Assembly: GCA_027460535.1 (NCBI GenBank)
Contig: JAPZAR010000035.1
Coordinates: forward strand, 1-32,000
DNA from: Candidatus Methanoperedens sp.
Lineage (GTDB): Archaea > Halobacteriota > Methanosarcinia > Methanosarcinales > Methanoperedenaceae
Direction: 5' to 3'
Length of the DNA: 32,000 nt
Of the stretch, positions 3,061 through 31,988 are shown in pieces. Position 1 is the stretch's first letter; every line of letters begins with the position of its first letter. The translations under genes were made by a program, and so were the position numbers. The notes beneath the pieces are model-generated. The model worked only from the letters and a program-made list of their open reading frames with translations. It was not told the origin of the DNA and ran no database searches.

Positions 3061-3168
3061 TCTTATTCATGAAAAAAACAAGGACAACAAAGGGCATATC
3101 TTGAGTCGCGCCACAAGCGGCCCTTCGAAATCAGTTTTATACCCTGCCAGTGTATAGGGTGTTAACAT

Positions 3169-3684
3169 ATGGAAGTTAAGATCATCAGAAGCCCGGACAG
3201 AAAAAAGACCATTCAGGCAAAGATGGCCGGAGAGACTCTTTTATTATATCTCCCTCTTGGAATGCACCGTGAAGAGGAGAGAAAGCTCATAGAGAAAATG
3301 AAACAAAAAATGGAGAAAAAGAATCTTAAGACCAGGATCAATAAAGATGATCAACTTAAGAAAAGATTTGATGAGTTCAACAGTAAATATTTCCAGGGTA
3401 GGCTCAGGGTCAACTCCATCGAATTTGTTACAAACCAGAAAAAGAACAACGGAAGCTGCTCACCCAACAGAGGCACCATTAGAATATCTCACAGGCTCCT
3501 TGACATGCCAGGATGGGTCCTTGACTATGTGATCATGCATGAGATGACTCACCTTGTGTATCCGGATCATTCAAGAGCCTTCTGGGAAAAGGTTGGAGAA
3601 TATAAATATACAGAAAGGGCAAGAGGTTTCCTGATAGCTAAAGGCATGGAGGGGGAAGAGAATGGAAGCAATGGATGTGATTGA
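3169..3684 (+). CDS. DUF45 / YgjP-like (M48-related) metal-dependent hydrolase
   Basis: NGSCSPNRGTIRISHRLLDMPGWVLDYVIMHEMTHLVYPDHSRAFWEKV matches the WGSCs...dYVvvHElcHl..nHs..Fw pattern of DUF45. Confidence 0.75.
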   Translation: MEVKIIRSPDRKKTIQAKMAGETLLLYLPLGMHREEERKLIEKMKQKMEKKNLKTRINKDDQLKKRFDEFNSKYFQGRLRVNSIEFVTNQKKNNGSCSPNRGTIRISHRLLDMPGWVLDYVIMHEMTHLVYPDHSRAFWEKVGEYKYTERARGFLIAKGMEGEENGSNGCD

Positions 3685-3961
3685 AGGAATCATGGTGCGT
3701 GCGTGAGGATGGGTTCTCATGAACACAGATTGCCTGTATCTGCGCTTATCGGCGTCATGCCTATTGAGAAAGTCACATTTTCATGCATAGTTTTTGATCA
3801 AAACTTGTGAAATGTAATTTAGATATGCTGATTTTTAACAGGTGCGCCGGACTTTAATTAGCGTGATTAAATAAAATCAGAACGGCCCGTATAAAAGCAC
3901 CTCCAAGGTCAAAATAAGATGATTATATTTAGTTGAAAAACAAAGAAAAGATGCGTGTAAT

Positions 3962-4180
3962 ATGTCTGAAGCTGCCGCAGCAGAAACCCCAAAAATAATG
4001 GAGAAGGTATTCAACATACTGAAAAGGGAGCTCAGCGCAGAAGAGTATCTAATATATCTTCAGGCGATAACTCCGAGAATAGGAGACGCAACAGCTGAAC
4101 TCAGGGACATTACTAAAAAAATGAGTCTTGAAGATGTGCTTCGCAAGGCAAAGCGAATTGAAAAAACAATGAAAGTGTAG
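3962..4180 (+). CDS. Small hypothetical protein (72 aa)
   Basis: An ATG-initiated ORF with charged, helical-looking composition. I recognise no family. Confidence 0.35.
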   Translation: MSEAAAAETPKIMEKVFNILKRELSAEEYLIYLQAITPRIGDATAELRDITKKMSLEDVLRKAKRIEKTMKV

Positions 4181-4287
4181 AAATGGGTTAGTAGCAGAGG
4201 CAGACGCTCCACTGGTAGACAAATGGCGCGCCACCTGCGGTATCCTTCGGAACGATCCACCTCTCCCGCCAGTGCAGGTATTTTTGA

Positions 4288-5487
4288 CTAATACAACCGT
4301 CTGCGCCTGTTATGCTGCTGCTGCCCTCTTCTCACAATGGGCTTATTCATCCTTCTCTCAGGGTTCCTTATCACAGCCTTCTCAAGGACAGGCAATATCT
4401 CTTCCTTGATCTCCACATCATTTTCCTTCAATACCTGTGAAAAGTTATCATAATCCTTGCTTGAAAGAATATTTATGGCCTTTCCTTCTGCTCCTGCTCT
4501 TGCAGTCCTTCCGATCCTGTGGATGTACTGCTTGCTTTCACGTGGAATATCGTAATTGTAAACATGGGATACACCCTGGATATCAAGTCCCCTTGCAGCC
4601 ACATCAGTGCATACAAGGATACAGGATTTTCCGGAATGGAATCGATCCATCACATTGTTCCTTTTTCCCTGTGGCAATCCGCCATGAATGGCCATTGCAT
4701 CTATTTCTGCAAATCTCAAGTTTTTTGCAACTTTATCGGTATTTCGTTTCGTGTTGCAGAATACCATAACAAGGCGTGAGTTTTCATGCTTCAGCAGATG
4801 CACAAGCAATGAAAACTTTAGATCCTCGCCGACATCATAATAAGTCTGAATCAGTTTTTTGGGGTCGACATAGGAATCAACGGAAACCTGGAGCGGTTTT
4901 TTCATGTGCCTCTGGGCGAGCCTGACAACGTCTTTTGTGATGGTTGCCGAGAAAAGAAGGGTCTGCCTGTCCTGGGGGCATTTTCTGATTATTTTCTCCA
5001 CGTCATCCTTGAAGCCCATATCGAACATCCGGTCTGCTTCATCAAGAACAAGGGTTTTCACTTTGCCCAATCGAATAGAATTTCTTGCGATGTGATCAAG
5101 TATCCTGCCGGGTGTTCCCACCACAACATCTGCGGTCCGCAATCCCTGGATTTGCGGATTGATCCCCACACCTCCATAGACCGCAATGATCGCTAAAGGT
5201 TTGTACTTTGAGAATTTCGCCAGAGCCTTTGAAACCTGCTCGGCCAGTTCTCTTGTGGGAGTCAGGACCAGAGCCTGGATACCATTTCCCCTCTCGGAAC
5301 TTTTTATTATACCGGAAGCAAATGCAAGCGTCTTTCCGGAGCCTGTTGCAGACCCGGCTATAACGTCTTTCCCTGCAAGTATCAGAGGGATCGATTTTTC
5401 CTGTATTTCACTGGGATTCTCAAACTTCTCATCTTTTATTGATTTCAAAACGGGCTCACTTATGCCCAGATCTTTAAAACTTTCCAT
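4288..5487 (-). CDS. DEAD-box ATP-dependent RNA helicase
   Basis: Motifs present are a Q-motif region (F..PSEIQ), AGSATGSGKT (motif I), PTRELA, VLDEADRM (DEAD box), SAT, and HRIGRTARAG (motif VI). There is a basic R-rich C-terminal tail. The first ATG (MESFKDLGI...) is at 5487. The track start at 5553 is a TTG that adds 22 implausible residues. Confidence 0.9.
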   Translation of the reverse strand: MESFKDLGISEPVLKSIKDEKFENPSEIQEKSIPLILAGKDVIAGSATGSGKTLAFASGIIKSSERGNGIQALVLTPTRELAEQVSKALAKFSKYKPLAIIAVYGGVGINPQIQGLRTADVVVGTPGRILDHIARNSIRLGKVKTLVLDEADRMFDMGFKDDVEKIIRKCPQDRQTLLFSATITKDVVRLAQRHMKKPLQVSVDSYVDPKKLIQTYYDVGEDLKFSLLVHLLKHENSRLVMVFCNTKRNTDKVAKNLRFAEIDAMAIHGGLPQGKRNNVMDRFHSGKSCILVCTDVAARGLDIQGVSHVYNYDIPRESKQYIHRIGRTARAGAEGKAINILSSKDYDNFSQVLKENDVEIKEEILPVLEKAVIRNPERRMNKPIVRRGQQQHNRRRRLY

Positions 5488-9906: not shown

Positions 9907-12576
9907 ATGGTAAATAACGAAATTCGGATACTGAACGATCAACCGATAGACCATGAAACATTTTTTAATTTTGACGACTATTCGGATGCTCTGGCAGGAA
10001 TAATCCTCCATGAGGATACGAACACACCGCTCGTCATAGGTATATTTGGCGATTGGGGAAGCGGGAAAACAAGCCTGATGAAAACTTTGAAGAAGAAGAT
10101 CGAAAATGTGAAAGATGGCCACTCTGCCCAGACTATCTGGTTCAATGCATGGAAATATGATAAAGAGGATGTTATCTCGCGCGCTCTTCTGACTCGAATA
10201 CTGCAGGAACTAGAGACTAAGGGCGAAAAAAAGGACGAGAAAATCTTGAATCGAAGACTAAAGGATCTTCAGAGAAGTCTCTACAAGGACGTTTATCGCG
10301 AAGATCCCGGCTCTTTGACTTTTGATCTGGGCAAAGCTAGCAAAGGGGTTCTTAAGCTTGGCCTTTCAACGGTTCCCATCATAGGGGAAGGATTGGCGAA
10401 ATTATTTGAAAAAGGTGTTGATAAAGATGCAATTATAGAAATAGCAGAATCATTACATCATGAGAAAATCATCACAAATATAGAAAAAATTGGAGAGCTT
10501 GAGCAATTTCAGTCAACCTTCCGGGAGATAATCAGGGATCATTATATCCAACATAATAAGAGAGCAGTAGTATTTATTGATGACCTGGATCGATGTGTTC
10601 CTGATAAAGCAATAGAAGTTATGGAAGCCATCAAGCTGTTTCTGGATGTAGAGGGCTGTATCTTTATTTTAGGCATAGACAGGAATGTCATCCGCGAGGG
10701 AGTACGAATCAAATATAAAGATTTCACATTAGGAGGCATAAAAGTTCCGATCAATGGTGAAGAATATCTGGAAAAGATAATTCAACTGAGTTTTATGCTC
10801 CCGCCTATAATGGAAAATAAGTTAAAAGAATTTATAGATGATCTTGATCAGAAAAAATCGTATAAAGAGTATCACGATATGATTATAAATGGGATCGGAA
10901 GGAATCCGCGTAAGATCAAACGCTTTATCAATGCCATAAGATTCCAGCAAAACCTGGCTGAAATAATTCCTGAAATGAAGGATATTGTCAAAGAGGATAT
11001 CAAGCAAACATTTGATGCGCTGCTGATAGAATGGCAAATTATAAGCAGCAGCAGCAATTCTGATTTTGAAAATTTCAGAAAGGAGGTTATTAAAAATCCG
11101 GGTCTTCTGATCAAGAGCCATGATTATGTGGAGAGCCTGAAGTCCGGGAAAAAAGACGAACCTCCCAAAGAGCTAAACCCCTTTTGGAATGATTCAATTA
11201 AAGAATTGATATGGGTATTCCCATATCCAGGGACTCTAAAAGAAGGTGATACAGATATCATCAAAAAGGTAACTCATCTTAGCAATGTAACAGAAACAAA
11301 AACAACAATAGAAACAGGTGTGGAAGAAACCTGGACACTTGAGAAAGTTAAGGAAGCAATAAAGAAAGGTATGAGTTTGGAAGGGAAAGATTTAAGCGGG
11401 CTTTCCTTAAATAAAATGAATCTAAATGGGGCGAATCTTTCGGGTGCAAAACTTATTAAAACAGACCTTTCTGAAGCAAAATTGGTAGAAGCAAATATCG
11501 TGCATACAGATCTTTCAGGTGCGATACTTATTGGAACAGATCTTTCTAAAGCCAGTCTTGCATATGCGGTTCTTATCCGGGCAAATCTTTCAGAAGCGAT
11601 TCTGAAAAACGCAAAACTTCCAAATGCAGATTTCAGTTATGCTATCCTGAATGGAGCAAATCTCACTGAGGCGTACCTAAGCCTTTCTGATTTCTCTTAT
11701 TCAAATCTTTCAAAAGCTACACTCACTGGGACCCTCGGTGGTGAAAATAAATTCATAGGGGCTAATTTATCGGGTGCTGATCTTTCTAATGCAGACCTAA
11801 CAGACGCGAAACTTTCAGATGCAAACCTTTCTGGATTAGACCTCACTAATGTACCCCTCAGTGGAGCAGATCTTTCTAATGCAAACCTCATTAAAACTAA
11901 GCTCCCTGAAGACCTCACTCGTACAATCCTAACCGGAGCAGACCTCACGGGAGCCAAACTCTCCGGTTCAACACTCTATGGAGACCTTTCAAGAATAGTA
12001 CTTAACAATGCAGAGCTTAATGATATAAAATTCACTGAAATACAAACCCTTTCCGGAGCGAAAATTAAAGGAGCGAAAATAGGCAAATCTGATCTCTCTG
12101 GGTTGGATCTTTCAAATGTGGATTTCTCCAATACAGATCTAATTGAAACTAACCTGAATAAAACAAACCTCTCCAAAGCCATCCTGATAGACGCCAAACT
12201 ATTCAATGCAAAACTTCAACATGCAAACCTTTCAAATGCAAACCTTTCTAATGCGAAGCTCTCCGGATCAGACTTTTATTATGCAGATCTTTCCAATGCA
12301 TCTCTTATTGGTGCAGATATATCCGGAACAGACCTGTCGTATGCAACATTGATAAAAATAAAAACCACACGAATTAAAGTCAATGAAAATACAAATGCAA
12401 GAGATGTGATTTTGGTTATGGATGAAGATCCCCAGGATGAAGCCAAAATAAAGAGAGCTCTGGATGATATAGATAAGGGATTAAGGGATATAATTATCAA
12501 ACAAAATGAGCGTTACCGCAATATCTATTCTGGTTCAGAACCTGCCTCTGCCATTCCTGGTAAAGCAAAAAAATGA
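9907..12576 (+). CDS. KAP-family P-loop NTPase fused to a long C-terminal pentapeptide-repeat domain
   Basis: Walker A is IGIFGDWGSGKTS and Walker B is VVFIDDLDRC, both in the KAP-typical form. GAGGAG lies just upstream of the ATG. Residues about 495-815 are continuous A(D/N)LSx pentapeptides. The lines I counted are AT-rich (about 28% GC), against about 67% in a line of the adjacent mtnA. Confidence 0.8.
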   Translation: MVNNEIRILNDQPIDHETFFNFDDYSDALAGIILHEDTNTPLVIGIFGDWGSGKTSLMKTLKKKIENVKDGHSAQTIWFNAWKYDKEDVISRALLTRILQELETKGEKKDEKILNRRLKDLQRSLYKDVYREDPGSLTFDLGKASKGVLKLGLSTVPIIGEGLAKLFEKGVDKDAIIEIAESLHHEKIITNIEKIGELEQFQSTFREIIRDHYIQHNKRAVVFIDDLDRCVPDKAIEVMEAIKLFLDVEGCIFILGIDRNVIREGVRIKYKDFTLGGIKVPINGEEYLEKIIQLSFMLPPIMENKLKEFIDDLDQKKSYKEYHDMIINGIGRNPRKIKRFINAIRFQQNLAEIIPEMKDIVKEDIKQTFDALLIEWQIISSSSNSDFENFRKEVIKNPGLLIKSHDYVESLKSGKKDEPPKELNPFWNDSIKELIWVFPYPGTLKEGDTDIIKKVTHLSNVTETKTTIETGVEETWTLEKVKEAIKKGMSLEGKDLSGLSLNKMNLNGANLSGAKLIKTDLSEAKLVEANIVHTDLSGAILIGTDLSKASLAYAVLIRANLSEAILKNAKLPNADFSYAILNGANLTEAYLSLSDFSYSNLSKATLTGTLGGENKFIGANLSGADLSNADLTDAKLSDANLSGLDLTNVPLSGADLSNANLIKTKLPEDLTRTILTGADLTGAKLSGSTLYGDLSRIVLNNAELNDIKFTEIQTLSGAKIKGAKIGKSDLSGLDLSNVDFSNTDLIETNLNKTNLSKAILIDAKLFNAKLQHANLSNANLSNAKLSGSDFYYADLSNASLIGADISGTDLSYATLIKIKTTRIKVNENTNARDVILVMDEDPQDEAKIKRALDDIDKGLRDIIIKQNERYRNIYSGSEPASAIPGKAKK
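11389..12354 (+). repeat. Coding tandem repeat of about 64 pentapeptide units (15-nt periodicity) inside the KAP gene
   Basis: The translation reads DLSGLSLNKMNLNGANLSGAKLIKTDLSEAKL...ADLSNASLIGADISGTDLSYATL. Recurrent nt strings such as gcaaa(c/t)ctttc occur throughout. The repeat also creates spurious antisense ORFs rich in 'RSAP'. Confidence 0.9.
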
Positions 12577-13172
12577 TTGTCCTGAAACTCGGCGGAAGCC
12601 TTATGCACAGGGTAAAAGAACTCATAAAGGAGATAATAGATTATTCTAACGAAAGCAAGGATACGATATTGATAGTCCCTGGCGGCTCCATCTTCGCAGA
12701 TACAGTGAGAAGTGTGAAAGCCTCGCAGGAAGCTTCCCACTGGATGGCTGTCCTCGCTATGGAACAATATGGTTATTTCTTATCTGATGGAAACGATGCG
12801 AAACTCATTGATAACCTGGATATAGAAGGTTCAGGTACGTATATTCTTCTCCCCTACAACATTCTGAAAAAGATTGATGAACTCCGACATACTTGGGATG
12901 TCACATCAGACACGATCGCCGCCTGGGTCGCCCTTCAACTAAATGCAAGGTTCATAAAAGCCACGGATGTGGATGGGATATATCTCAATGGCATGCTGGT
13001 GAAGGAAATTTCCGCGCGTGAAATCACAGGGAAAGAAACCTGTGTGGATGCAGAGCTTCCTGTTTTTCTCATGAAGAATAAAATGAATTGCGAGATAATC
13101 AATGGTAACTGCCCCGGAAGACTGGGCAGGGCTTTTTCGGGTGATGCAGCAGGGACGATTATTAAAGGTTGA
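12573..13172 (+). CDS. Small amino-acid-kinase-fold protein (Asp/Glu/uridylate kinase superfamily), possibly MfnE-type
   Basis: MIVLKLGGSL..., ILIVPGGS..., TSDTIAAWVA and ATDVDGIY are the conserved kinase-fold motifs. At 199 aa it is too short for Asp, Glu or UMP kinases. The MfnE-like assignment is from memory and unverified. Its ATG overlaps the KAP gene's TGA (ATGA). Confidence 0.55.
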   Translation: MIVLKLGGSLMHRVKELIKEIIDYSNESKDTILIVPGGSIFADTVRSVKASQEASHWMAVLAMEQYGYFLSDGNDAKLIDNLDIEGSGTYILLPYNILKKIDELRHTWDVTSDTIAAWVALQLNARFIKATDVDGIYLNGMLVKEISAREITGKETCVDAELPVFLMKNKMNCEIINGNCPGRLGRAFSGDAAGTIIKG

Positions 13173-21665: not shown

Positions 21666-22025
21666 TCAAAATTTTGCTTTAAAAATATTTTTCATATGGA
21701 AATCAAAATACCCAGCCTGAATATGATCTATTTTTCCAAAAATTGTTTTATTGTGATATTCTTCCTCGATATCGCGATGAAGGCAAATTCGTTTTGAATA
21801 GTCTATAGCGATATTACCACACTCAAATTCTGTATGATGATTAGGACAAAGTGCTATTATATTATCATATTTATCATAATCTTTTTTATTTTTAAGAGGT
21901 CTGACGTGCGCGCCTTCAACTAATAAACGACCATTATAGTCCTTCTTATTCCATCCGCAAATAACGCAAGCATTTCCACATAAATTAATCCCTTTTTCAC
22001 TCTCCTGACTATTTCGGGATACCAT
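21666..22025 (-). CDS. HNH (HNH_2-like) endonuclease, small stand-alone protein
   Basis: CVICGW (CxxC) ... EGAHVRPLKN...YDNIIALCPNHHTEFECGNIAIDY fits the aHI.P...N.l.LcpnhH..FD.G.i.id pattern of His-Me finger nucleases. The first ATG (22025) overlaps the 3' end of the upstream gene by 17 nt. The track start at 22076 is a TTG. Confidence 0.75.
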   Translation of the reverse strand: MVSRNSQESEKGINLCGNACVICGWNKKDYNGRLLVEGAHVRPLKNKKDYDKYDNIIALCPNHHTEFECGNIAIDYSKRICLHRDIEEEYHNKTIFGKIDHIQAGYFDFHMKNIFKAKF

Positions 22026-23202
22026 ACATAATCCACTCACTGGTTTTAGGAGCGATGTTCCTATCAACAGTATCAAATAAAATTCTCCACAAATTCGGAT
22101 CTTTACTCATCTGGTTTATTTGATTATGGTGGTTCTTGTACGTCCTCGTTATTTCTTGAAGTAGTTGGTTTCCTATACGGTTAAAAATTTTTTCTGGTTT
22201 TTCATACCATCCAATCCTTTCACTCGCTTCATCGTATTTCACTACTCCTCGAAAGCTTGACAATAAGGGCAGCAGAAATTGTATTGGCAAATCCCAGATG
22301 ATATCTTTGCCCAAAAATATTGTTTTTCTTGGATTATCTTTTCGACTCGTTATTACACCGAGGTTTGTAAAACCTCGTGGCGCAGAGTCATGAAAAGTTG
22401 TGAGAATATGCTCTTCTAAATTAATAATATCATTAACTAATGGATACGTATGTAAAAATTCATTTTGATGCCCCAGCCAATAATTGAATGTTGCATTTTT
22501 GCTTGTTGCAGATTTATTTGGTTGTTCCGTCCCATCATGCCAATTACTTTGATAGGATTTAATATTAAATAGATTCAACCGTGCAATAAGGTCAACAGCG
22601 GTTAGTCCCCTATCATTAGGTACTTTTCGATTTTCAAACCAAATGATATGTTTTTCAAAATCAGCATTCATTGAAAGTTTTATCTTTGCAAAATATCCCC
22701 GTTTTTCAGCAACAGAATATGATTTTACGTTAGAAGCTGTATTCCTACTTGCAGCAATCATTGCAAGCTTTTCAGGTGAAAATTCCTGTTCAATAACATC
22801 CAAGCGTACAACAGCCTTCGAAATATCTTGTTCTTTCTTTGTGTCCAAAAGGGCTAGTTGTGTATGCCCTCCATTTACGATTCCTGTTCCAGGAGGAAAA
22901 TTTATTTTGACGGTCTTATTTTTTTTATTTACAGTCACCGTCACCTTAGTTGAGATTACATCAATTCCCCCGTTTTGTAGTAAAAAATCAATAGGGGCTG
23001 TCTTTAACGTTTTTATCATATCCTTATAAGGTTGTGATTTCTCCGATGGTTCTCTAACATTAGCATCCAACGGTAAATCTAAATAATCACTACCTTTTAT
23101 GAAAAAAGTGTACATTCGTGGATAACCTGGTACATCATACGTTTTATATTCTATAAAATCCATCTCGACTTCTGTTGGGGTAGACCTTGTACCTGATGGC
23201 AT
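22009..23202 (-). CDS. AIPR-like / ParB-Srx-like protein ('IVNGGHTQLALL' motif), candidate abortive-infection or restriction component
   Basis: The 397-aa ORF has AAGGGA upstream of the ATG. DANVREPSEKSQPYKDMIKTL...FLLQNGGIDVIS and GTGIVNGGHTQLALLD resemble, from memory, the N.R...I..TL...F...NNGITI and NG.QT blocks of the AIPR family. They also fit the (D/N)G(Q/G)(H/Q)(R/T) motif position of DGQHR/DUF262 ParB-fold proteins. This is not verified by any search. Confidence 0.5.
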   Translation of the reverse strand: MPSGTRSTPTEVEMDFIEYKTYDVPGYPRMYTFFIKGSDYLDLPLDANVREPSEKSQPYKDMIKTLKTAPIDFLLQNGGIDVISTKVTVTVNKKNKTVKINFPPGTGIVNGGHTQLALLDTKKEQDISKAVVRLDVIEQEFSPEKLAMIAASRNTASNVKSYSVAEKRGYFAKIKLSMNADFEKHIIWFENRKVPNDRGLTAVDLIARLNLFNIKSYQSNWHDGTEQPNKSATSKNATFNYWLGHQNEFLHTYPLVNDIINLEEHILTTFHDSAPRGFTNLGVITSRKDNPRKTIFLGKDIIWDLPIQFLLPLLSSFRGVVKYDEASERIGWYEKPEKIFNRIGNQLLQEITRTYKNHHNQINQMSKDPNLWRILFDTVDRNIAPKTSEWIMYGIPK

Positions 23203-24159: not shown

Positions 24160-24594
24160 GTGAAAGGTATAAATGGACTGGAACTATCCCCCAAAAAGAT
24201 AGACTACCTGAAATTCCTTAAGGAGAAGAAAAAGGCAAAGACTACCGAGATATCCGATGAGTTCAAAGTCGATCCTTCCACGACAACCAAGATATTGCTC
24301 GAACTCGCAAAAACAGATCTGGTAACCTATACGCCTTATCATGGCTGTTCTCTTACAGAAAAAGGTATCAAGTACGTAGAATTCTTAAACAGGCGGCATG
24401 GACTTATAGTATGCATGCTGGTAGGGATGGGAATGGATACAAAAACCGCATGCGAAGCTGCTGGAAGATTCGAATATTTTGTCACGAAAGATGTGGTGGA
24501 CACACTTTGCAAGAATTTCTCTCACCCAGACCTTAGTCCATGCGGAACCAGTATAAGTCGCGACACTTGCTGTTGCTGTCCGGGAGGTGGCTGA
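24160..24594 (+). CDS. DtxR/MntR-family metal-dependent transcriptional repressor with a poly-Cys C-terminal tail
   Basis: LSPKKIDYLKFL...TTEISDEFKVDPSTTTKILLELAK..LV...LTEKG...RRHGLIVCML...EAAGRFEYFV...HPDLSPCG follows the DtxR-family layout. It ends ...RDTCCCCPGGG. The start is a GTG. Confidence 0.75.
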   Translation: MKGINGLELSPKKIDYLKFLKEKKKAKTTEISDEFKVDPSTTTKILLELAKTDLVTYTPYHGCSLTEKGIKYVEFLNRRHGLIVCMLVGMGMDTKTACEAAGRFEYFVTKDVVDTLCKNFSHPDLSPCGTSISRDTCCCCPGGG

Positions 24595-24595
24595 G

Positions 24596-25501
24596 ATGAA
24601 CTCTGTAAAGTCTGCATTCACTCTTATTTTACTCATCGTATTGCTTGTGAGTCTCACGGGGTGCATCCAGCAGCCAAAATCAAGTGAAAAGATCAATGTC
24701 GTCACTTCCTTTTATCCTCTTTATGAATTTTCAAAGCGCATCGGGGGTGAAAAGGCCGAGGTATCGGTATTGGTTCCTGCAGGTGCAGAGCCACATGACT
24801 GGGAACCCGGCCCACAGGATATTATCAAAGTAGAATCCGCTCAGATTTTTGTTTATAATGGCGCTGGGCTTGAACCTTACATTGATAAAATTATAACAAA
24901 GACCGAATCCCAGAAATTGATTGTTGTTGATTCAAGCGAAGGGATTGAATTAATTAAAGAAGGAGGGACGCCTGATCCCCATATCTGGCTTGACCCGGTG
25001 CTGGCAAAACACCAGGCAGATGCCATAGAGAAAGCGTTTATTAAAGCCGACCCGAAAAATAGTGATTATTACACGGCCAATGCTCAGGCACTCAGGCAGG
25101 ATCTGGACGCGCTGGGTGCAAATATTTCAAAAGAATTAGCTCCTGCCAAAAAGAAGGTATTTATAACCGCTCACGCCGCATTTGGCTATTTTGCCAAGAG
25201 ATATGGTTTAACGCAAATCGCAATTGCAGGGCTGTCGCCTGACATAGAGCCCAGCCCTGCAAAAATTGTCGAGATTGTTAAACTCGCACAGGAGAATAAA
25301 GTGAAATACATTTTCTTTGAGACTTTAGTAAGCCCGAAGTTATCTGAAACTATTGCAAAAGAAGCGGGGGCGCAAACGCTGGCGCTTAACCCGATAGAGG
25401 GACTTTCCGAAGGTCAGATCAAGCAAGGGGAGAACTACTTTACTTTAATGCGGAAGAATGTGAAAAACCTCAAATTAGCGCTGGATGTAGAGAATGGATG
25501 A
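24596..25501 (+). CDS. Metal ABC transporter substrate-binding lipoprotein (ZnuA/TroA cluster A-I type)
   Basis: Signal peptide plus lipobox (LLVSLTGC). Metal-ligand regions are AEPHDWEP, DPHIWLDP and TAHAAFGYF. A His at the third ligand position, rather than Glu, leans toward the Zn type. The track's alternative GTG start is at 24587. Confidence 0.8.
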   Translation: MNSVKSAFTLILLIVLLVSLTGCIQQPKSSEKINVVTSFYPLYEFSKRIGGEKAEVSVLVPAGAEPHDWEPGPQDIIKVESAQIFVYNGAGLEPYIDKIITKTESQKLIVVDSSEGIELIKEGGTPDPHIWLDPVLAKHQADAIEKAFIKADPKNSDYYTANAQALRQDLDALGANISKELAPAKKKVFITAHAAFGYFAKRYGLTQIAIAGLSPDIEPSPAKIVEIVKLAQENKVKYIFFETLVSPKLSETIAKEAGAQTLALNPIEGLSEGQIKQGENYFTLMRKNVKNLKLALDVENG

Positions 25502-27033: not shown

Positions 27034-27111
27034 GGCCCGGGAAAGAAGTATCCTAATATACTAATGGGCGTAAAGTATAATATCTCACATTATAAGGATG
27101 AATTACAATTT

Positions 27112-28005
27112 ATGGAGCTTGAAAACCTAAGACACGGGACGGAACTAATTAAAAGAGGATTTGCGGGAATGCAAAAAGGCGGGGTGATAATGGATGTCAC
27201 CAACCCCCAGGAAGCCAGGATAGCAGAGATGGCTGGAGCAGTGGCGGTGATGGCGCTCCATGCGGTCCCCGCGGATATCAGGAAAGCCGGCGGGGTTGCG
27301 AGAATGGCAGACCCGCAGGTCATATCAGAGATAATCGAGTCGGTCACCATACCTGTGATGGCCAAGGCGAGAATAGGTCATTTTGTGGAGGCTGAGATCC
27401 TTGAAGCCCTCGGTGTCGACATGGTGGATGAGTCAGAAGTGCTCACGCCCGCTGATGAGGCGTTCCATATAGACAAGATAAGGTTCACGATACCTTTCGT
27501 ATGCGGCGCCCGCGACCTTGGCGAAGCACTTCGGCGGATAAACGAAGGTGCTGCCATGATCAGGACAAAGGGTGAAGCGGGAACCGGCGATGTGAAAGAG
27601 GCAGTGAAGCATATGCGGGCGATAATGGGCATGATCCGGGAACTCAAAGGCAAGAGCTCAGGGGAACTCACTGTCGTGGCACGGAAAATAGAAGCCCCGA
27701 TCGAGCTTGTGAAAGAGACCGCAGAATTGCAGAGGCTTCCCGTAGTGAACTTTGCGGCCGGAGGCATAGCCACACCCGCGGATGCGGCATTGATGATGCG
27801 TCTGGGTGCGGATGGCGTTTTTGTGGGTTCCGGGATATTCAAATCCGAAAATCCCGAGAAGATGGCAAAGGCTATCGTAGAAGCGGTGAACAATTATGAT
27901 AATCCAGCCGTTCTTGCACAGATATCAAAGGGGGTCGGCGGGGCTATGAAAGGGATCGATATCAGGAGCCTGACAGAAAAGGAAGTGCTGCAGGCCAGAG
28001 GATAG
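27112..28005 (+). CDS. pdxS: Pyridoxal 5'-phosphate synthase, lyase subunit
   Basis: [14 protein letters not shown]...[28 protein letters not shown]...[10 protein letters not shown]...RTKGEAGTG...[32 protein letters not shown] is near-canonical PdxS. The start at MELENL... (27112) matches the normal N-terminal length. The track start at 27064 adds 16 aa. Confidence 0.92.
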
Positions 28006-28347: not shown

Positions 28348-28533
28348 ATGGACTGCTGTGGATCAAGTAAACCGAAAGAAAAAGATGATGATATAAAAGA
28401 AGAACAATCGGGCATTAAAAAAAATTCCGTCGAAAAAGAGCAAGCCCACGGCGGCGGTTGCTCAGGGATGTGGTTTCACCTTTTGCTAATGATTATCGTA
28501 GTTTTATTAATATCGTATTTTACGAAGAGGTAA
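28348..28533 (+). CDS. Small Cys-containing tail-anchored protein (61 aa)
   Basis: AAAGGAG lies upstream of the ATG. The N-terminus is MDCCGSS, followed by an acidic/lysine-rich linker, HGGGCSG, a single C-terminal TM helix (MWFHLLLMIIVVLLISYF) and a terminal TKR. Confidence 0.55.
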   Translation: MDCCGSSKPKEKDDDIKEEQSGIKKNSVEKEQAHGGGCSGMWFHLLLMIIVVLLISYFTKR

Positions 28534-28552
28534 GAATATAAAAAAGAAGACT

Positions 28553-28939
28553 GTGTTAATAACTGGAATTGCCGGGTTGCTGCTTGTATTCGGTGCAGTA
28601 GTCGCGCTGGCGCAGAATACGAGCGAGAAAACGAAGGATGCGGAAAATCATGAATGCACTCCGGAGATGATGAAGGATATGTCAGGAAAATGTCCGGAGC
28701 ATATGATGCAATCCGGTGCCTGCGAAAATATGATGAAAGGATCAAAAGGCGGCAGTGAAATGATGGGCGGGAAGAATCTGACAAGCGCATCAGAATCTAA
28801 AGAGACCGGCCGTTGTGGAAGTAATTCTGGCATGGGTTCGATGATGAGTTCCAAGCGCATGAAGATGAAAAATATGAAACATGGCACTCAGAACCCGCAG
28901 AGTCGGATTGATGAAAATAAGAAAGAGGAGCTTACATGA
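28553..28939 (+). CDS. Secreted Met/Cys-rich protein (putative Cu(I)- or thiophilic-metal-binding)
   Basis: Hydrophobic signal-like N-terminus (ITGIAGLLLVFGAVVALA), then CTPEMMKDM, CPEHMMQ, CENMMK, SEMMG and MGSMMSSKRMKMKNMKH. I count 15 internal Met and 4 Cys. GTG is the only canonical start. The frame is open upstream (KNIKKKT), so the true start is uncertain. Confidence 0.6.
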   Translation: MLITGIAGLLLVFGAVVALAQNTSEKTKDAENHECTPEMMKDMSGKCPEHMMQSGACENMMKGSKGGSEMMGGKNLTSASESKETGRCGSNSGMGSMMSSKRMKMKNMKHGTQNPQSRIDENKKEELT

Positions 28940-29334
28940 GAATATTAGGAACAACAATAATAACCTTATTCGTATTGATGGCAGTCGCTATCAGCGGATG
29001 CTTATCAGGAGGGGAGAAACCTCCGACTGATTTATTGGAGCCGAGGGAGAATTCAGAAGCCGGAGTACAAATAACAGCAACTTATCTTCCTGATATCACC
29101 GACGCCACGGCTTTTGAAATTAAAGTCACTGCCCATATGGACTATAACGATGATTTTAAGAATAACTCTTACCTGCGTGATTCCAGCGGCAAAATATATC
29201 AACCTCTTTCTTATGAGGGTGCAGGCGGGCACCATGCCAGCGGAACACTTCGATTTCCTAAGATCGAGAGCAGGACATTTGAACTTGTGATCAAGGATGT
29301 CGCAGGGGTAAATGAACGAGTATTTAAGTGGTAA
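28936..29334 (+). CDS. Lipoprotein of unknown function with a 'GGHH' motif
   Basis: Signal peptide plus lipobox (AISGC). The mature part VQITATYL...FEIKVTAHMDYN...LRDSSGKIYQPLSYEGAGGHHASGTLRFP...ELVIKDVAGVNERVFKW looks beta-rich. Its ATG overlaps the upstream stop (ATGA). Confidence 0.65.
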   Translation: MRILGTTIITLFVLMAVAISGCLSGGEKPPTDLLEPRENSEAGVQITATYLPDITDATAFEIKVTAHMDYNDDFKNNSYLRDSSGKIYQPLSYEGAGGHHASGTLRFPKIESRTFELVIKDVAGVNERVFKW

Positions 29335-29338
29335 GCAT

Positions 29339-29824
29339 ATGCCAGGTATCAAAAGCCTTTTAAAAAATCCGTTTGTTTTCGGAGCTGGCATAGGAATATT
29401 TGTAATACTTTTCAATATCTCTATAGCTTCCTTAGGTGAAGGTTCATTTGAGAAAGGATACCAGGTATTCCTTACTAACGGGATATTTGTATACCTTATT
29501 CCCTTAGCAGTAGGTATTCAGATGGGGCTTTTCAGATACCACAGGAATCTGACTTCTGAGAACAAATTGTGCGGCTCTGAGAAGATGGGCATGGCAGGCT
29601 CAGCTACTTCATCACTGACGATGGTTGCATGCTGCCTGCATCATGTGAGTGATTTCTTACCTTCAGTTGGTTTCATTCTCGCAACATCGTCATTCTTTAT
29701 CCAATATAAAGACACCATAATAATCATCGGGCTCCTTGCCAATATAGCTGGAAGCGCCTACATTGCAAGAGCAATCCTAAAGGATAAATCGATTATTGCG
29801 GGAGCGAAAAAATCAACGGTCTAA
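29339..29824 (+). CDS. Four-TM membrane protein with an 'ACCLHH' motif
   Basis: The ATG at 29339 is 4 nt after the upstream stop. The hydrophobic segments include ...SATSSLTMVACCLHHVSDFLPSVGF..., which places Cys-Cys-x-His-His in a predicted TM helix. Confidence 0.6.
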   Translation: MPGIKSLLKNPFVFGAGIGIFVILFNISIASLGEGSFEKGYQVFLTNGIFVYLIPLAVGIQMGLFRYHRNLTSENKLCGSEKMGMAGSATSSLTMVACCLHHVSDFLPSVGFILATSSFFIQYKDTIIIIGLLANIAGSAYIARAILKDKSIIAGAKKSTV

Positions 29825-29867: not shown

Positions 29868-30671
29868 ATGACTGAAATACTCTGGATCTCACTCATACTT
29901 CTGGCTGTAGCATCAATCCTTCCGAGAGCCTATAATTCAAGGTTCATTTTTGGAGGGTTTGGCTGGGTATTCCTTTCCATATACTGGTCTTTGCAGCCGG
30001 GAACTTATATTGATATACAGGATTATGTTAATGCCTTTCTGGTAGTCGCCGCAGGAGGAGTTACCCTCTTTATAGCATATATTATGTTTAAGGCAAGGGA
30101 TACGAAAGACGGCGGCTACGACATGTTTATTTCATTATCCAGGGCTGCATCCGTAGGCGGTCTTTTGTATTTCTTGTTTGCAGAAGTAGGCTTCTTAAAT
30201 ACAAGGATAATTTCAACGGTCACTGACCAGGCAATCTGGGTAAGCGGGAAATTCGGGTTCCCAGTTGTACAGGTAGCATGGAACAAGCTTGCAGTCAACG
30301 GCATGGCAATTGAAATAATCCTTGCCTGCACTGCTATCGAGAGCATAGCCCTATTTTCAGGTATAATCTCCTCCGCAACAGGTGCACCTGCTGCACGGAA
30401 ATTCAAGGCGTTTATGATTTCAGTGCCAGTAATCTATATTCTCAATCTGCAAAGATTGGCTTTCACCGCCTCTGCTTATGGGTTTAGCTGGTTCGGAACG
30501 CCTGATGAGAGTTTCCATATTTCTGAGCATATTATCACCAAGGCAGGCTCCCTGCTGGCGCTCCTTATCATTTCATATTTGGTTCTTAAGATCCTTCCTG
30601 AGGTTTCGGATATGATAGACGGTGTAGTGAAAACCATGAGAATAGAATTCCACAGGTTGACGGTGAGATAA
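29868..30671 (+). CDS. Archaeosortase/exosortase-family membrane protein
   Basis: A polytopic protein with the family's three catalytic-type landmarks in order: Cys in IILACTAIESIALFSG (compare CSGixS), Arg in YILNLQRLAF, and His in FHISEHIITKAGS. The ATG at 29868 (MTEILWISL...) is preferred over the track's 29796. Confidence 0.65.
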   Translation: MTEILWISLILLAVASILPRAYNSRFIFGGFGWVFLSIYWSLQPGTYIDIQDYVNAFLVVAAGGVTLFIAYIMFKARDTKDGGYDMFISLSRAASVGGLLYFLFAEVGFLNTRIISTVTDQAIWVSGKFGFPVVQVAWNKLAVNGMAIEIILACTAIESIALFSGIISSATGAPAARKFKAFMISVPVIYILNLQRLAFTASAYGFSWFGTPDESFHISEHIITKAGSLLALLIISYLVLKILPEVSDMIDGVVKTMRIEFHRLTVR

Positions 30672-30673
30672 CA

Positions 30674-30967
30674 GTGAAAATAAAAGTGAATTATGATTTT
30701 TCCCAGCAGGAGGTTGTTGGCGAAACGGATGTTTTTGAAATTGCAGATGGAGCTAAACTTGGAGAACTGTTGCGGATAATCGACGCCAGGATTGTGGAAG
30801 CCGGAAAAAATAAGGGTATAGAGACCACTTATAAAACCACGTTGGCTGGCGGTCAGTTGAATGGATGTGTGGTTTTTATTAATGGTTCAGCACCGGAAAA
30901 TATGCTGGAACAATTGCTGCATGACCGTGATAACATTGAATTTGTTTATGGATTTTGTGGAGGATAA
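30674..30967 (+). CDS. MoaD/ThiS/SAMP-like beta-grasp protein ending in Gly-Gly
   Basis: 97 aa. The MKIKVNY... start, the ...VVFINGS... core and the C-terminus DNIEFVYGFCGG* parallel the MoaD/ThiS layout (...gDevaf.PPvsGG*). The GTG start is 2 nt after the archaeosortase stop. Confidence 0.6.
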   Translation: MKIKVNYDFSQQEVVGETDVFEIADGAKLGELLRIIDARIVEAGKNKGIETTYKTTLAGGQLNGCVVFINGSAPENMLEQLLHDRDNIEFVYGFCGG

Positions 30968-30969
30968 CA

Positions 30970-31809
30970 ATGAGCGGATTGATCGATTTTATATACAGGA
31001 ATTATATTGATGGGATAATCAACGATACAAGTTATAATCATTTTGACATGATCACATATATCATTATTCTTTTCGTGGGCGTATATGCTGCACTAAAATT
31101 ATTGAATAAATTGAAAATTAAAGTTGATGAGGAGTTTGTCATTGCTACAATTCCCTATATTTTCATGGGTTCAGTATTTCGGGTAATCGAGGATGCAAAT
31201 TTACTAAAGCCGCCCGTCAAATATTTTTTTATCACGCCGCTTATTTACTTCGTAATCTTTGCAATATGTTTTGGGTCTCTTCTCCTCACAAGATACCTTG
31301 AAAAGCTCAAGAAAATAAGAAATTATATTCGTGTATACGCAATTGCCGGGGTCACATTATCGTTAGTGGGAGTTGCTATCCTCGTTTATTATAGTTCTTT
31401 TAATTGGAATCTCGCTATTCTTGTATATAGTCTTGTGCCAGCTATAGGATTGACCGAATTGGTCAGAAGAATATCTCCGGCGATCGGTATGACTTATCTT
31501 CGAAGCAGGATGTATTCATTTGCAATATTTTCATTTCTGCTCGATTCGCTCACTACATATATTGGCGTAGATCTGCTGGGCTACACTAACAAACATCCTT
31601 TTAGTTCCTTCCTCACTTCCTTTTTTGGAACTGGAGCCATACTGGTTCCTCTGTCCCTGATTTTGGTACTTGTGATTGTCTTGTTGCTTGAAAAGGATTC
31701 CAAGGAAGATAAAAAACAGGATGAAAAGTATATGATGACATTGACCTTGATAGTTCTTGGTTTCTCCATGGGTGCAAGGAATTTGCTGGCAATGGTTTTC
31801 AGGGTTTAG
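30970..31809 (+). CDS. DUF63-family archaeal polytopic membrane protein
   Basis: About 280 aa with about 7 TM segments. GGAGGA lies 5 nt upstream of the ATG at 30970. The DUF63 assignment rests on size, topology and an N-terminus (LIDFIYRNYIDGI) that I recall for this archaeal family. It is unverified. Confidence 0.5.
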   Translation: MSGLIDFIYRNYIDGIINDTSYNHFDMITYIIILFVGVYAALKLLNKLKIKVDEEFVIATIPYIFMGSVFRVIEDANLLKPPVKYFFITPLIYFVIFAICFGSLLLTRYLEKLKKIRNYIRVYAIAGVTLSLVGVAILVYYSSFNWNLAILVYSLVPAIGLTELVRRISPAIGMTYLRSRMYSFAIFSFLLDSLTTYIGVDLLGYTNKHPFSSFLTSFFGTGAILVPLSLILVLVIVLLLEKDSKEDKKQDEKYMMTLTLIVLGFSMGARNLLAMVFRV

Positions 31810-31897
31810 CCGGAGGACACGGCGCGGGGCAGGCGGTGGGGGGCGGAGAGAGCGGAGTAAATGGTGATCGCTTCTTTTTTATGGTGGGAGTTCGAAG

Positions 31898-31988
31898 AAT
31901 AGAACGCGGATGACGCGGATTTAACGGATACGCACGGATAATTTTAATCCGTGTCAATCAGTGTTATCCGTGCGCTCCGTGTTCTATC
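31898..31988. repeat. Imperfect inverted-repeat region carrying 7 copies of CGGAT/ATCCG
   Basis: Direct copies: acgcggat at 31904-11 and 31913-20, acggat at 31924-29 and 31934-39. Inverted copies: atccgt at 31947-52 and 31966-71, ctccgt at 31975-80. The perfect 11-nt inverted pair is cgcacggataa (31931-41) and ttatccgtgcg (31964-74). The outer arms are aatagaacgcgga and tccgtgttctatc. Confidence 0.7.

Follow-up and report, generated by a model that had tools for sequence, protein, structure and literature searches.

Why is an archaeosortase gene followed, at two nucleotides (nt), by the gene of a small protein ending in Gly-Gly and then, again at two nt, by the gene of a DUF63 membrane protein? 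The question is raised by positions 29868 to 31809 of a 32,000-nt stretch of DNA from Candidatus Methanoperedens sp. (contig JAPZAR010000035.1; the whole stretch is called the window below). We refer to the three products as ArtA2, Ubl (for ubiquitin-like protein) and AliA. The answer given here, which is well supported, is that a conserved, lineage-specific second archaeosortase operon couples a paralogue of archaeosortase A (ArtA), an AliA-type transferase and a β-grasp protein with a Cys-Gly-Gly tail. ArtA, AliA and MoaD-like β-grasp proteins were known already as kinds of protein, and the set of partners and the Ubl subfamily are new.

The three genes and their products

The artA2 gene (29868..30671, plus strand) runs from an ATG to a TAA codon and encodes 267 amino acids (aa). 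It is followed by the Ubl gene (30674..30967, plus strand; GTG start, TAA stop), whose 97-aa product has the C-terminus FVYGFCGG*, and by the AliA-type gene (30970..31809, plus strand; ATG start, TAG stop), which encodes 279 aa. The three genes are co-directional and both intergenic gaps are 2 nt. A GGAGGA element (30959..30964, plus strand), which coincides with the final pair of Gly codons in the Ubl gene, resembles a Shine-Dalgarno sequence for aliA and lies 5 nt before its ATG. An initial annotation, made from the letters of the window, had described the 2-nt spacing and the GGAGGA inside the 3' end of the upstream gene, and the coordinates were identical on re-reading. The genes are tightly coupled across the family, by gaps of 2 nt in the window and by overlaps of 4 nt in relatives. 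Oligo-T tracts are terminators of archaeal transcription, and a run of six T (31875..31880, plus strand), 66 nt after the aliA stop codon, is the likely transcription stop of the operon.

The first protein was assigned to archaeosortase A by the NCBIfam hidden Markov model (HMM) TIGR04125, with a score of 217.7 bits (cutoff 75) and an alignment of residues 4-263 to model positions 1-269 of 271. It also matched the exosortase/archaeosortase signature TIGR04178 with 50.6 bits (cutoff 23). The initial annotation had recognized an archaeosortase-family gene from its Cys/Arg/His landmarks and had proposed this classification by HMM, which the protein passed. C154, in the motif ILACTAIES, and R196 are invariant in our ArtA alignment (A4), which includes a 41%-identical ArtA, and they are probably the counterparts of C173 and R214 of the Haloferax volcanii enzyme. 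According to the positive-inside rule, ArtA2 would span the membrane with seven transmembrane (TM) helices, its N-terminus lying outside and its C-terminus inside. The catalytic-type Cys154 is predicted near the outer end of TM5, and Arg196 and a His-containing loop are predicted toward the outer face.

The third protein matched Pfam PF01889 (DUF63) with 232.8 bits (cutoff 25), its residues 5-279 covering model positions 2-269 of 269. The family had thus been assigned correctly at the outset, and it was the label DUF63 that proved outdated: the family is named AliA_AliB in newer Pfam, and its function is that of a lipoprotein archaeol transferase. AliA and AliB, studied in Haloferax volcanii, are the first archaeal lipoprotein-biogenesis enzymes identified and are required for the thioether-linked archaeol on the lipobox cysteine; they correspond to arCOG02177/arCOG02178, and conserved arginines of the AliA type are set against histidines of the AliB type (PMC12462473, PMC13631571). 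Since AliB has been reported only in Halobacteria (PMC12462473, PMC13631571), the window copy is taken to be of the AliA type. Eight TM helices and four K/R-rich cytoplasmic loops are predicted for it. Substrates of AliA are lipobox proteins exported by the Sec or Tat pathway (PMC12462473). In the window, a regular expression combined with hydrophobicity picked out two open reading frames (ORFs) with a lipobox, one in the same operon (28936-29334) and one encoding ZnuA (24587-25501). Because DUF63 is the AliA/AliB family, the unit joins both known archaeal protein-lipidation enzymes.

The middle protein scored 22.5 bits against Pfam ThiS (PF02597), which is exactly the gathering score, and had no match in NCBIfam. 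A profile search against the sequences of the PDB gave nothing significant, the best matches being CutA1 (E 0.42) and MoaD (E 0.46). An AlphaFold2 model based on a 64-sequence alignment had a mean predicted local distance difference test (pLDDT) score of 90.1 and a predicted TM-score (pTM) of 0.82, with the order β-β-α-β-β and a tail of pLDDT 58. Foldseek with this model returned 14 PDB matches at E ≤1e-3, all of the SAMP, MoaD, Urm1 or CysO family, including SAMP1 (3po0, E 8.8e-6), mycobacterial MoaD (6jc0), Urm1 (6yuc_G), SAMP3 (2m19) and CysO, with TM-scores of about 0.7-0.78. The structure prediction therefore confirmed a MoaD/SAMP1/Urm1-type β-grasp fold, as expected from the MoaD/ThiS-like layout that had been noticed in the 97-aa protein. 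With TIGR04125, PF01889, and Pfam ThiS together with the structure model, all three of the original family assignments held.

Six residues of Ubl (D8, D37, C65, C95, G96 and G97) are invariant among the 64 sequences, which reach down to 32% identity, and the tail always reads G-[F/Y]-C-G-G. The invariant Cys65 and Cys95 are its only cysteines. Going by β-grasp topology, Cys65 opens the strand antiparallel to the last strand; Cys95 on the flexible tail should reach it, and the two residues are probably close to each other. The protein is acidic (isoelectric point 4.6) and, lacking both a signal peptide and TM segments, is predicted to be cytoplasmic. In 54 distinct genes the tail residues are unchanged while their codons vary synonymously, also in solitary genes with nothing downstream, and the tail is therefore constrained at the protein level. 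We had considered that the Gly-Gly invariance might be a mere by-product of the embedded Shine-Dalgarno element. The solitary genes led us to reject this: their tail shows the same invariance, and its codons change synonymously there too.

An exhaustive HMMER scan of 1.84 billion representative proteins found only 21 representative clusters of the Ubl family, several of which are fragments. All named members come from Methanoperedens or from metagenome-assembled genomes (MAGs) of anaerobic methanotrophic (ANME)-2 archaea and Methanosarcinaceae. Ubl belongs to a new MoaD/SAMP/Urm1-like subfamily characterized by the invariant Cys65 and the Cys-Gly-Gly end. One of two large multi-stretch matches to the family, P0137, was rejected as a spurious repeat translation.

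Several of the 97-aa Ubls (P0039, P0044 and P0081) are named 'aspartokinase-like uncharacterized kinase' by the Joint Genome Institute, a name that may go back to a known family of kinase-β-grasp fusions. Genes of the amino-acid-kinase family occur at 12573-13172 of the window (199 aa) and, in a related locus, some 1 kb upstream of the ArtA2-Ubl pair (L005:2525-3124).

Conservation of the trio

The initial annotation had raised the question of whether the three genes are co-localised in other genomes. Around Ubl, 26 loci from GTDB species representatives were compared. The order ArtA-Ubl-AliA was found in 15 of them, Ubl-AliA without ArtA in 4, and ArtA-Ubl without AliA in 1; one locus ended at a contig edge, and in 5 neither enzyme was beside Ubl. 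Those five are diverged Ubl copies with 34-64% identity. Ubl and AliA were adjacent in 19 of the 25 assessable species loci. The arrangement of the trio is kept across Ubl identities down to 64%, with the gene overlaps maintained, and it is confined to Methanoperedenaceae. Since the trio recurs in 15/26 species loci and in 19/27 metagenome loci centred on the sortase (described below), its adjacency is not due to chance.

In three loci (L052:2340-2410, L056:6790-6900 and L062:850-940) the body of Ubl is deleted between ArtA2 and AliA, and the last 10-12 codons (...IEFVYGFCGG*) are kept. The retained remnants include the GGAGGA element, and a sister locus (L055) has an intact Ubl gene. In L056 and L062 the retained tail is in frame with the first 5-9 codons, which gives mini-ORFs of 17-19 aa (MKIKVNYDF-IEFVYGFCGG* in L056). 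The remnant of L052 has no in-frame start, so the simplest reading is that the remnants preserve the ribosome-binding region of aliA and its translational coupling; that the mini-ORFs are functional tail peptides is less likely than this.

A different rearrangement was found in L006:7194-8294, in which ArtA2 and Ubl form one in-frame ORF (...EFSKAGGEIT-VKIKVNYDF...), with Ubl on the predicted cytoplasmic C-terminus of ArtA2.

Ubl also occurs with other partners. Three loci of the M. nitroreducens type (L027, L028 and L030) encode a second Ubl subfamily, 46-49% identical and with the same FCGG tail, and at 2 nt from it a protein that combines a TRASH/YHS-type zinc ribbon with an SDH-type serine protease of the ClpP fold. 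This partner protein (286 aa; Ubl and protease region of L028, 8001-9154) matched NF047768 with 279.6 bits. Upstream of this pair, L028 contains a MacB/FtsX-type ABC transporter and a protein with a PGF-CTERM tail (4143-4985). One MAG, Kmv03, carries both Ubl subfamilies (L025 and L027). Solitary Ubl genes were found in L025, L031, L034, L037 and L039. Outside Methanoperedenaceae, in an ANME-2-like MAG of Methanosarcinaceae (L032:1-10301), Ubl follows a PCYCGC-DsbD-Fer4-thioredoxin-CcmF set for cytochrome c maturation and thiol redox, and it lies 1.9 kb upstream of the housekeeping ArtA-PssD-PssA-DHNA genes.

Two MAGs contain two diverged copies of the module each, which may be a real duplication or a strain mixture. 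The Ubls are 84% and 77% identical to the window Ubl in MAG nzgw24 (L013 and L017), and 85% and 78% identical in MAG SR-VP_26_10_2019_2_100cm (L009 and L023).

Two classes of ArtA

A metagenome scan with the ArtA alignment yielded 80 loci, which fell into two classes. The 34 class 1 loci encode an ArtA 61-84% identical to that of the window, with ICMT upstream and Ubl-AliA downstream, and PssD or PssA was found in none of the 34. The downstream counts are based on the 27 class 1 loci that extend downstream of ArtA. An intact Ubl is present in 20 of these, and in 19 of the 20 AliA is present too; a Ubl remnant with AliA was found in 3 more, an inverted AliA-Ubl pair about 3 kb away in 1, and neither in 3. 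The ArtA of the 46 class 2 loci is only 43-50% identical to the window protein. It stands in the order ArtA-PssD-PssA in 41 of the 46, and neither Ubl nor AliA was beside it in any of them.

Annotation places the class 2 proteins in Ca. Methanoperedens, and the sequences closest to them after these (52-58% identity) are ArtAs with the annotation Methanosarcinales or Methanosarcinaceae. Their context, ArtA-PssD-PssA-DHNA, is identical to that of the ANME-2 locus L032, whose PssD/PssA-linked ArtA is 41% identical to the window ArtA2. Both classes were found in the same metagenomes. A published census lists two ArtA domains in each of two ANME-2d genomes versus one in other Methanosarcinales (PMC5244752 Table 2). 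Because the two classes differ in identity and partners and the census gives two ArtA domains, the window sortase is a lineage-specific second paralogue and not the housekeeping ArtA. Beside ArtA2, Ubl-AliA, together with ICMT in the fuller versions, take the position of the lipid-supply pair PssD-PssA.

In two loci (L075:11-1058 and L076:3707-5985) the gene immediately upstream of ArtA is of the ICMT type, and the ArtA has its better score with the L032-like, housekeeping class. This arrangement may be intermediate.

A longer operon in metal-rich neighbourhoods

Judged by gene order, a longer, modular operon confined to Methanoperedenaceae is built around the trio. The full operon was found in L013, L016, L017, L020 and L021. 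It starts with genes for a lipobox lipoprotein, a CCLHH membrane protein and paralogous N-terminally anchored proteins of 200 aa, 175 aa and sometimes 172 aa, and it ends with an ICMT-type methyltransferase, ArtA, Ubl and AliA. The operon of the window is a reduced form, which comprises the lipoprotein, the CCLHH protein, ArtA, Ubl and AliA and has no ICMT gene. The ICMT-type protein passed the Pfam thresholds for ICMT and PEMT, and its best PDB match was the Methanosarcina acetivorans ICMT 4A2N (E 3e-9). In L001 the ICMT gene directly overlaps the Ubl gene.

In the window, the lipoprotein gene (28936..29334, plus strand) encodes 132 aa with a signal peptide ending in ...AISG|C and a GGHH motif, as recognized by regular expression and hydrophobicity. 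The protein is likely a substrate of AliA, and its homologues open the conserved cluster in many loci. A model of the mature lipoprotein, computed in single-sequence mode, reached pLDDT 70 and showed a generic Ig-like β-sandwich with no PDB match below E 1e-3, so the idea that it binds metal gained no support from the model. The CCLHH gene (29312..29824, plus strand; 170 aa) shares 23 nt with the lipoprotein gene and is separated from artA2 by 43 nt. A gene of this type directly follows the lipoprotein gene in related loci as well, and the window copy had no significant family match. Further upstream lie two small co-directional genes (28348..28939, plus strand) of 61 aa and 128 aa, which may also belong to the operon. 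The 61-aa protein is Cys-rich and C-terminally anchored, starts with MDCCGS and contains HGGGCSGMWFH; the 128-aa protein is Met/Cys-rich and secreted. Neither has family matches, and their composition suggests that both are candidate metal binders. YHS and DUF2933 genes are found at the equivalent position of related loci.

That the ArtA2-Ubl-AliA operon sits in neighbourhoods rich in metal-handling genes is well supported. Genes related to metals are present in each annotated context of the module, among them multicopper oxidase, YHS, HMA, PCYCGC and DsbD genes, as well as CbtAB, Fe-dependent repressors and ZnuABC. The three N-anchored paralogues (170-200 aa; L017:4755-6419 and L001:1896-3034, 4720-5238) could be assigned to no family. 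They share the motifs LGDM..L and YHY[FY]Y, and an insert rich in Met and His distinguishes the 200-aa protein. A multicopper oxidase with a lipobox (3088-4686) is inserted among them in L001.

Comparison with known systems

In Methanosarcina the genes artA, pssD and pssA are syntenic, and in Haloferax volcanii PssA and PssD are required for ArtA-dependent lipid anchoring, as reported in 2020 (PMC7157517). ArtA2 resembles the ArtA of this system in its full-length family match, the conserved Cys and Arg, and the same layout of seven TM helices with an outward-facing active site. Unlike that ArtA, it is never beside PssD or PssA; Ubl and AliA follow it, an ICMT-type gene often precedes it, and its operon encodes no PGF-CTERM substrate. 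The window AliA is like the AliA/AliB systems in its full-length family match and in having a lipobox protein encoded in the same operon. The conserved AliA neighbours that have been published are GldA, inositol monophosphatase, a metal-binding protein, SpoIIM and DeoC (PMC12462473, PMC13631571). The window AliA differs in standing with an ArtA and a β-grasp protein, neither of which is among these neighbours.

Ubl shares its fold and a flexible tail ending in Gly-Gly with SAMP1/SAMP3, MoaD, Urm1 and CysO. It differs from them by the invariant Cys at position -3 and Cys65, by a sequence likeness at threshold level only, and by its genetic partners, which are membrane lipidation enzymes and not a linked E1, JAMM protease or acceptor. 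A further, looser analogy is suggested by eukaryotic CaaX processing (prenyltransferase, Rce1/Ste24 and ICMT), Atg8 lipidation and the bacterial MYXO-CTERM/myxosortase signals, which contain an invariant Cys; Ubl may be compared with them for its Cys near the C-terminus. The fuller ArtA2 operons could likewise be compared with CaaX processing, as they encode a lipid transferase, a protease/transpeptidase and an ICMT-family methyltransferase together. In contrast to CaaX processing, the operon enzymes are unrelated to prenyltransferase or Rce1, and the predicted topology separates Ubl from the ArtA2 site.

The initial annotation had named no described link between an archaeosortase and a ubiquitin-like or sulfur-carrier protein, and our literature search also found none, nor any between an archaeosortase and DUF63, ThiS, MoaD or ICMT. 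The 2010 survey of archaeal Ubls contains nothing comparable to the CGG-tailed Ubl (PMC2948915). The ArtA2 operon is the first conserved genetic link that we found between the two archaeal families of lipidation enzymes, and it adds two candidates to the lipidation pathway, namely the CGG-tailed ubiquitin-fold protein and the ICMT-type methyltransferase. This matters at a time when archaeal protein lipidation is only now being worked out, AliA/AliB having been identified in 2025 and a signal peptidase being among the components still to be identified. Two ArtA systems with different partners in Methanoperedens are also a natural experiment on the choice of lipid donor and substrate by ArtA. 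Methanoperedens are environmentally important nitrate- and metal-dependent methane oxidisers, and their surface redox and metal-handling proteins depend on such anchoring.

The role of Ubl

The most likely reading, at about even odds, is that the operon is a dedicated envelope-anchoring module, with Ubl as a cytoplasmic accessory or regulatory partner of ArtA2 and AliA. Methanoperedens keeps the ancestral ArtA-PssD-PssA-DHNA set, in which PssA and PssD supply the lipid for C-terminal anchoring, and in the ArtA2 operon the β-grasp protein and an AliA-type archaeol-cysteine transferase stand instead of PssD-PssA. In this module N-terminal archaeol thioethers would come from AliA and C-terminal processing, at the outside of the membrane, from ArtA2, and the clients would be an accessory set of surface proteins that probably handle metals. 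Translational coupling would keep the synthesis of Ubl in line with that of ArtA2 and AliA, and Ubl might act at the cytoplasmic face, on the C-terminal tail of ArtA2 and the basic loops of AliA. Its Gly-Gly tail and Cys65/Cys95 could form a switch that is thiol-, redox- or metal-sensitive, or activated by an E1. What has been shown comprises the gene identities, the fold, the conservation, the paralogy, the synteny counts and the protein-level constraint on the tail; complex formation, the substrates and everything on Ubl action are what we infer here. With Ubl predicted in the cytoplasm and the active site of ArtA2 on the outside, a role as substrate is less likely for Ubl than one as accessory or regulatory partner. 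The acidic nature of Ubl against the strongly basic cytoplasmic loops of AliA also counts for the proposal, as do the L006 fusion and the proximity of Ubl to ArtA in L032.

Several observations weigh against the proposal. The Ubl body was deleted at least twice while ArtA2-AliA persist (L052, L056 and L062), and Ubl is therefore not essential to that pair. Nor is it specific to ArtA2 and AliA, since it also occurs beside the TRASH-SDH protease or alone. An accessory-subunit role alone does not explain the invariant Gly-Gly terminus. The L006 fusion was seen in a single MAG whose contig naming suggests a long-read assembly, and it may be an indel error. The two ArtA paralogues were not found in one assembly: a class 2 protein, P0264, sits in CABMHZ01, which is absent from the Ubl-locus assemblies. 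Finally, no ORF of the window has a PGF-CTERM-type tail and no substrate with a C-terminal sorting signal is encoded in the operon, in agreement with the initial annotation, which had seen no substrate of the PGF, PEF or VPXXXP-CTERM type. PGF-CTERM tails are present in related loci (L006 13134-14024 and L028 4143-4985), several of them within a few kb.

It is somewhat unlikely that Ubl is instead an E1-activated sulfur carrier or SAMP-type modifier. In that case a UbaA/MoeB-type E1 encoded elsewhere would adenylate the Gly-Gly tail, and Ubl would carry a thiocarboxylate or be conjugated to lysines, possibly those in the K-rich loops of its operon neighbours. The structural matches are those that such a protein should have (SAMP1, MoaD, Urm1, SAMP3 and CysO), the invariant Gly-Gly stands on a flexible tail of low pLDDT, Pfam ThiS is matched at the gathering score, and SAMPylation of proteins encoded beside Ubl genes has been described for Haloferax (Makarova and Koonin, PMC2948915). 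However, a profile comparison with MoaD and ThiS of solved structure gave no significant match (E about 0.5), the invariant Cys at -3 and Cys65 are foreign to known carriers, and the expected partners are missing from the linked genes. The window contains no E1, MoaE, ThiG or JAMM gene, as first noted for E1, MoaE and ThiG; its only ThiG-like match is PdxS (SOR_SNZ, 27064-28005). No ThiF/MoeB signature or JAMM motif was found in the 879 kb made up by the window and 127 related loci, which covers linked genes only, so that an E1 elsewhere in the genome is possible. No sulfur-acceptor enzyme of the MoaE, ThiG, NcsA or CysM type occurs in any annotated Ubl context. The suggestion of a membrane-associated Ubl system, in its E1-dependent sense, found no direct support.

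It is unlikely that Ubl is a thiol-based chaperone or sensor of a metal, probably copper, bound by Cys65 and Cys95. The trio would then be a co-expression unit and not a pathway, with ArtA2 and AliA present only because the surface metal-binding proteins of the island need anchoring. This would fit a protein with only two cysteines, both invariant, in metal-rich neighbourhoods among Met/His/Cys-rich cluster proteins, and also the TRASH/YHS-type zinc ribbon in the fused partner of the second Ubl subfamily. It leaves the Gly-Gly invariance unexplained, and the immediate partners coupled by overlaps are not metal proteins. A CxxC or any other known metal-binding motif is missing from Ubl, its cysteines are taken to be close to each other on the basis of topology, and the weak match to CutA1 is not significant (E 0.42).

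Quite improbable is a lipidation of Ubl itself that resembles that of CaaX proteins or Atg8. In this scheme Cys95 would receive archaeol from AliA, the loss of Gly-Gly through ArtA2 or some other protease would leave the lipidated cysteine at the C-terminus, and methylation of that cysteine by the ICMT-type enzyme would complete a membrane-anchored ubiquitin-fold protein. The chemistry of the neighbouring enzymes (cysteine lipidation, C-terminal cleavage and prenyl-cysteine carboxyl methylation) is suggestive, as are the invariant Cys three residues from the end, the ICMT match to 4A2N (E 3e-9) and the overlap of ICMT and Ubl genes in L001. The obstacle is the membrane. CaaX-type processing involves access of the Ubl cysteine to lipid transferase, protease and ICMT from the same side, which disagrees with the predicted topology: Ubl has no export signal, the prediction puts Cys154, Arg196 and the His-loop of ArtA2 on the outer face, and the S-adenosylmethionine that ICMT requires is cytoplasmic. 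Moreover, the substrates of AliA are lipobox proteins exported by Sec or Tat (PMC12462473), and an ICMT gene is missing from the window. Lineages in which none of the three enzymes is adjacent retain the tail, and C-G-G is not a canonical C-a-a-X.

A more general form of this idea is equally a long shot: that Ubl is covalently processed at its C-terminus, with Cys95 lipidated or Gly97 activated, and joined to a membrane lipid or to the ArtA2/AliA/ICMT machinery. If true, this would add a new kind to the ubiquitin-fold modifications of prokaryotes, and the processed Ubl would be an archaeal membrane-anchored ubiquitin-fold protein like Atg8 or CaaX proteins. It would also be the first candidate substrate for archaeal ICMT orthologues, the natural substrate of which, to our knowledge, is still unidentified.

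An adjacency without functional meaning, in which a small gene was inserted between genes of membrane enzymes and inherited by descent, is highly improbable: the trio is limited to one archaeal family and Ubl was lost from its position in three loci, but the trio persists down to 64% Ubl identity with overlaps kept, Ubl is under strong purifying selection, it is again near ArtA in another family-level lineage (L032), and all three pairwise combinations recur.

Surroundings of the operon

The chromosomal surroundings in the window are ordinary and include genes for ribonucleotide reductase, eIF-2B, PurH, CofC, PdxS and ZnuABC. The whole module had no blastn match in the plasmid collection searched and Ubl had no tblastn match in the phage collection; these collections gave no sign of an origin from mobile elements. 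Immediately downstream of the operon, at 31899-31987, lies a 41-nt imperfect inverted repeat, 71% complementary and with arms 7 nt apart, which consists of repeated ACGGAT/ATCCGT units and follows a G-rich tract (31812-31860). None of the 127 related loci contains the 11-nt core of this repeat. Elsewhere in the window, two candidate defence loci were observed. One (9907-12576) encodes an 889-aa KAP-family P-loop NTPase fused to long pentapeptide-repeat regions, and the other (21666-23202, minus strand) is a pair of an HNH endonuclease and an AIPR (abortive-infection-type) protein.

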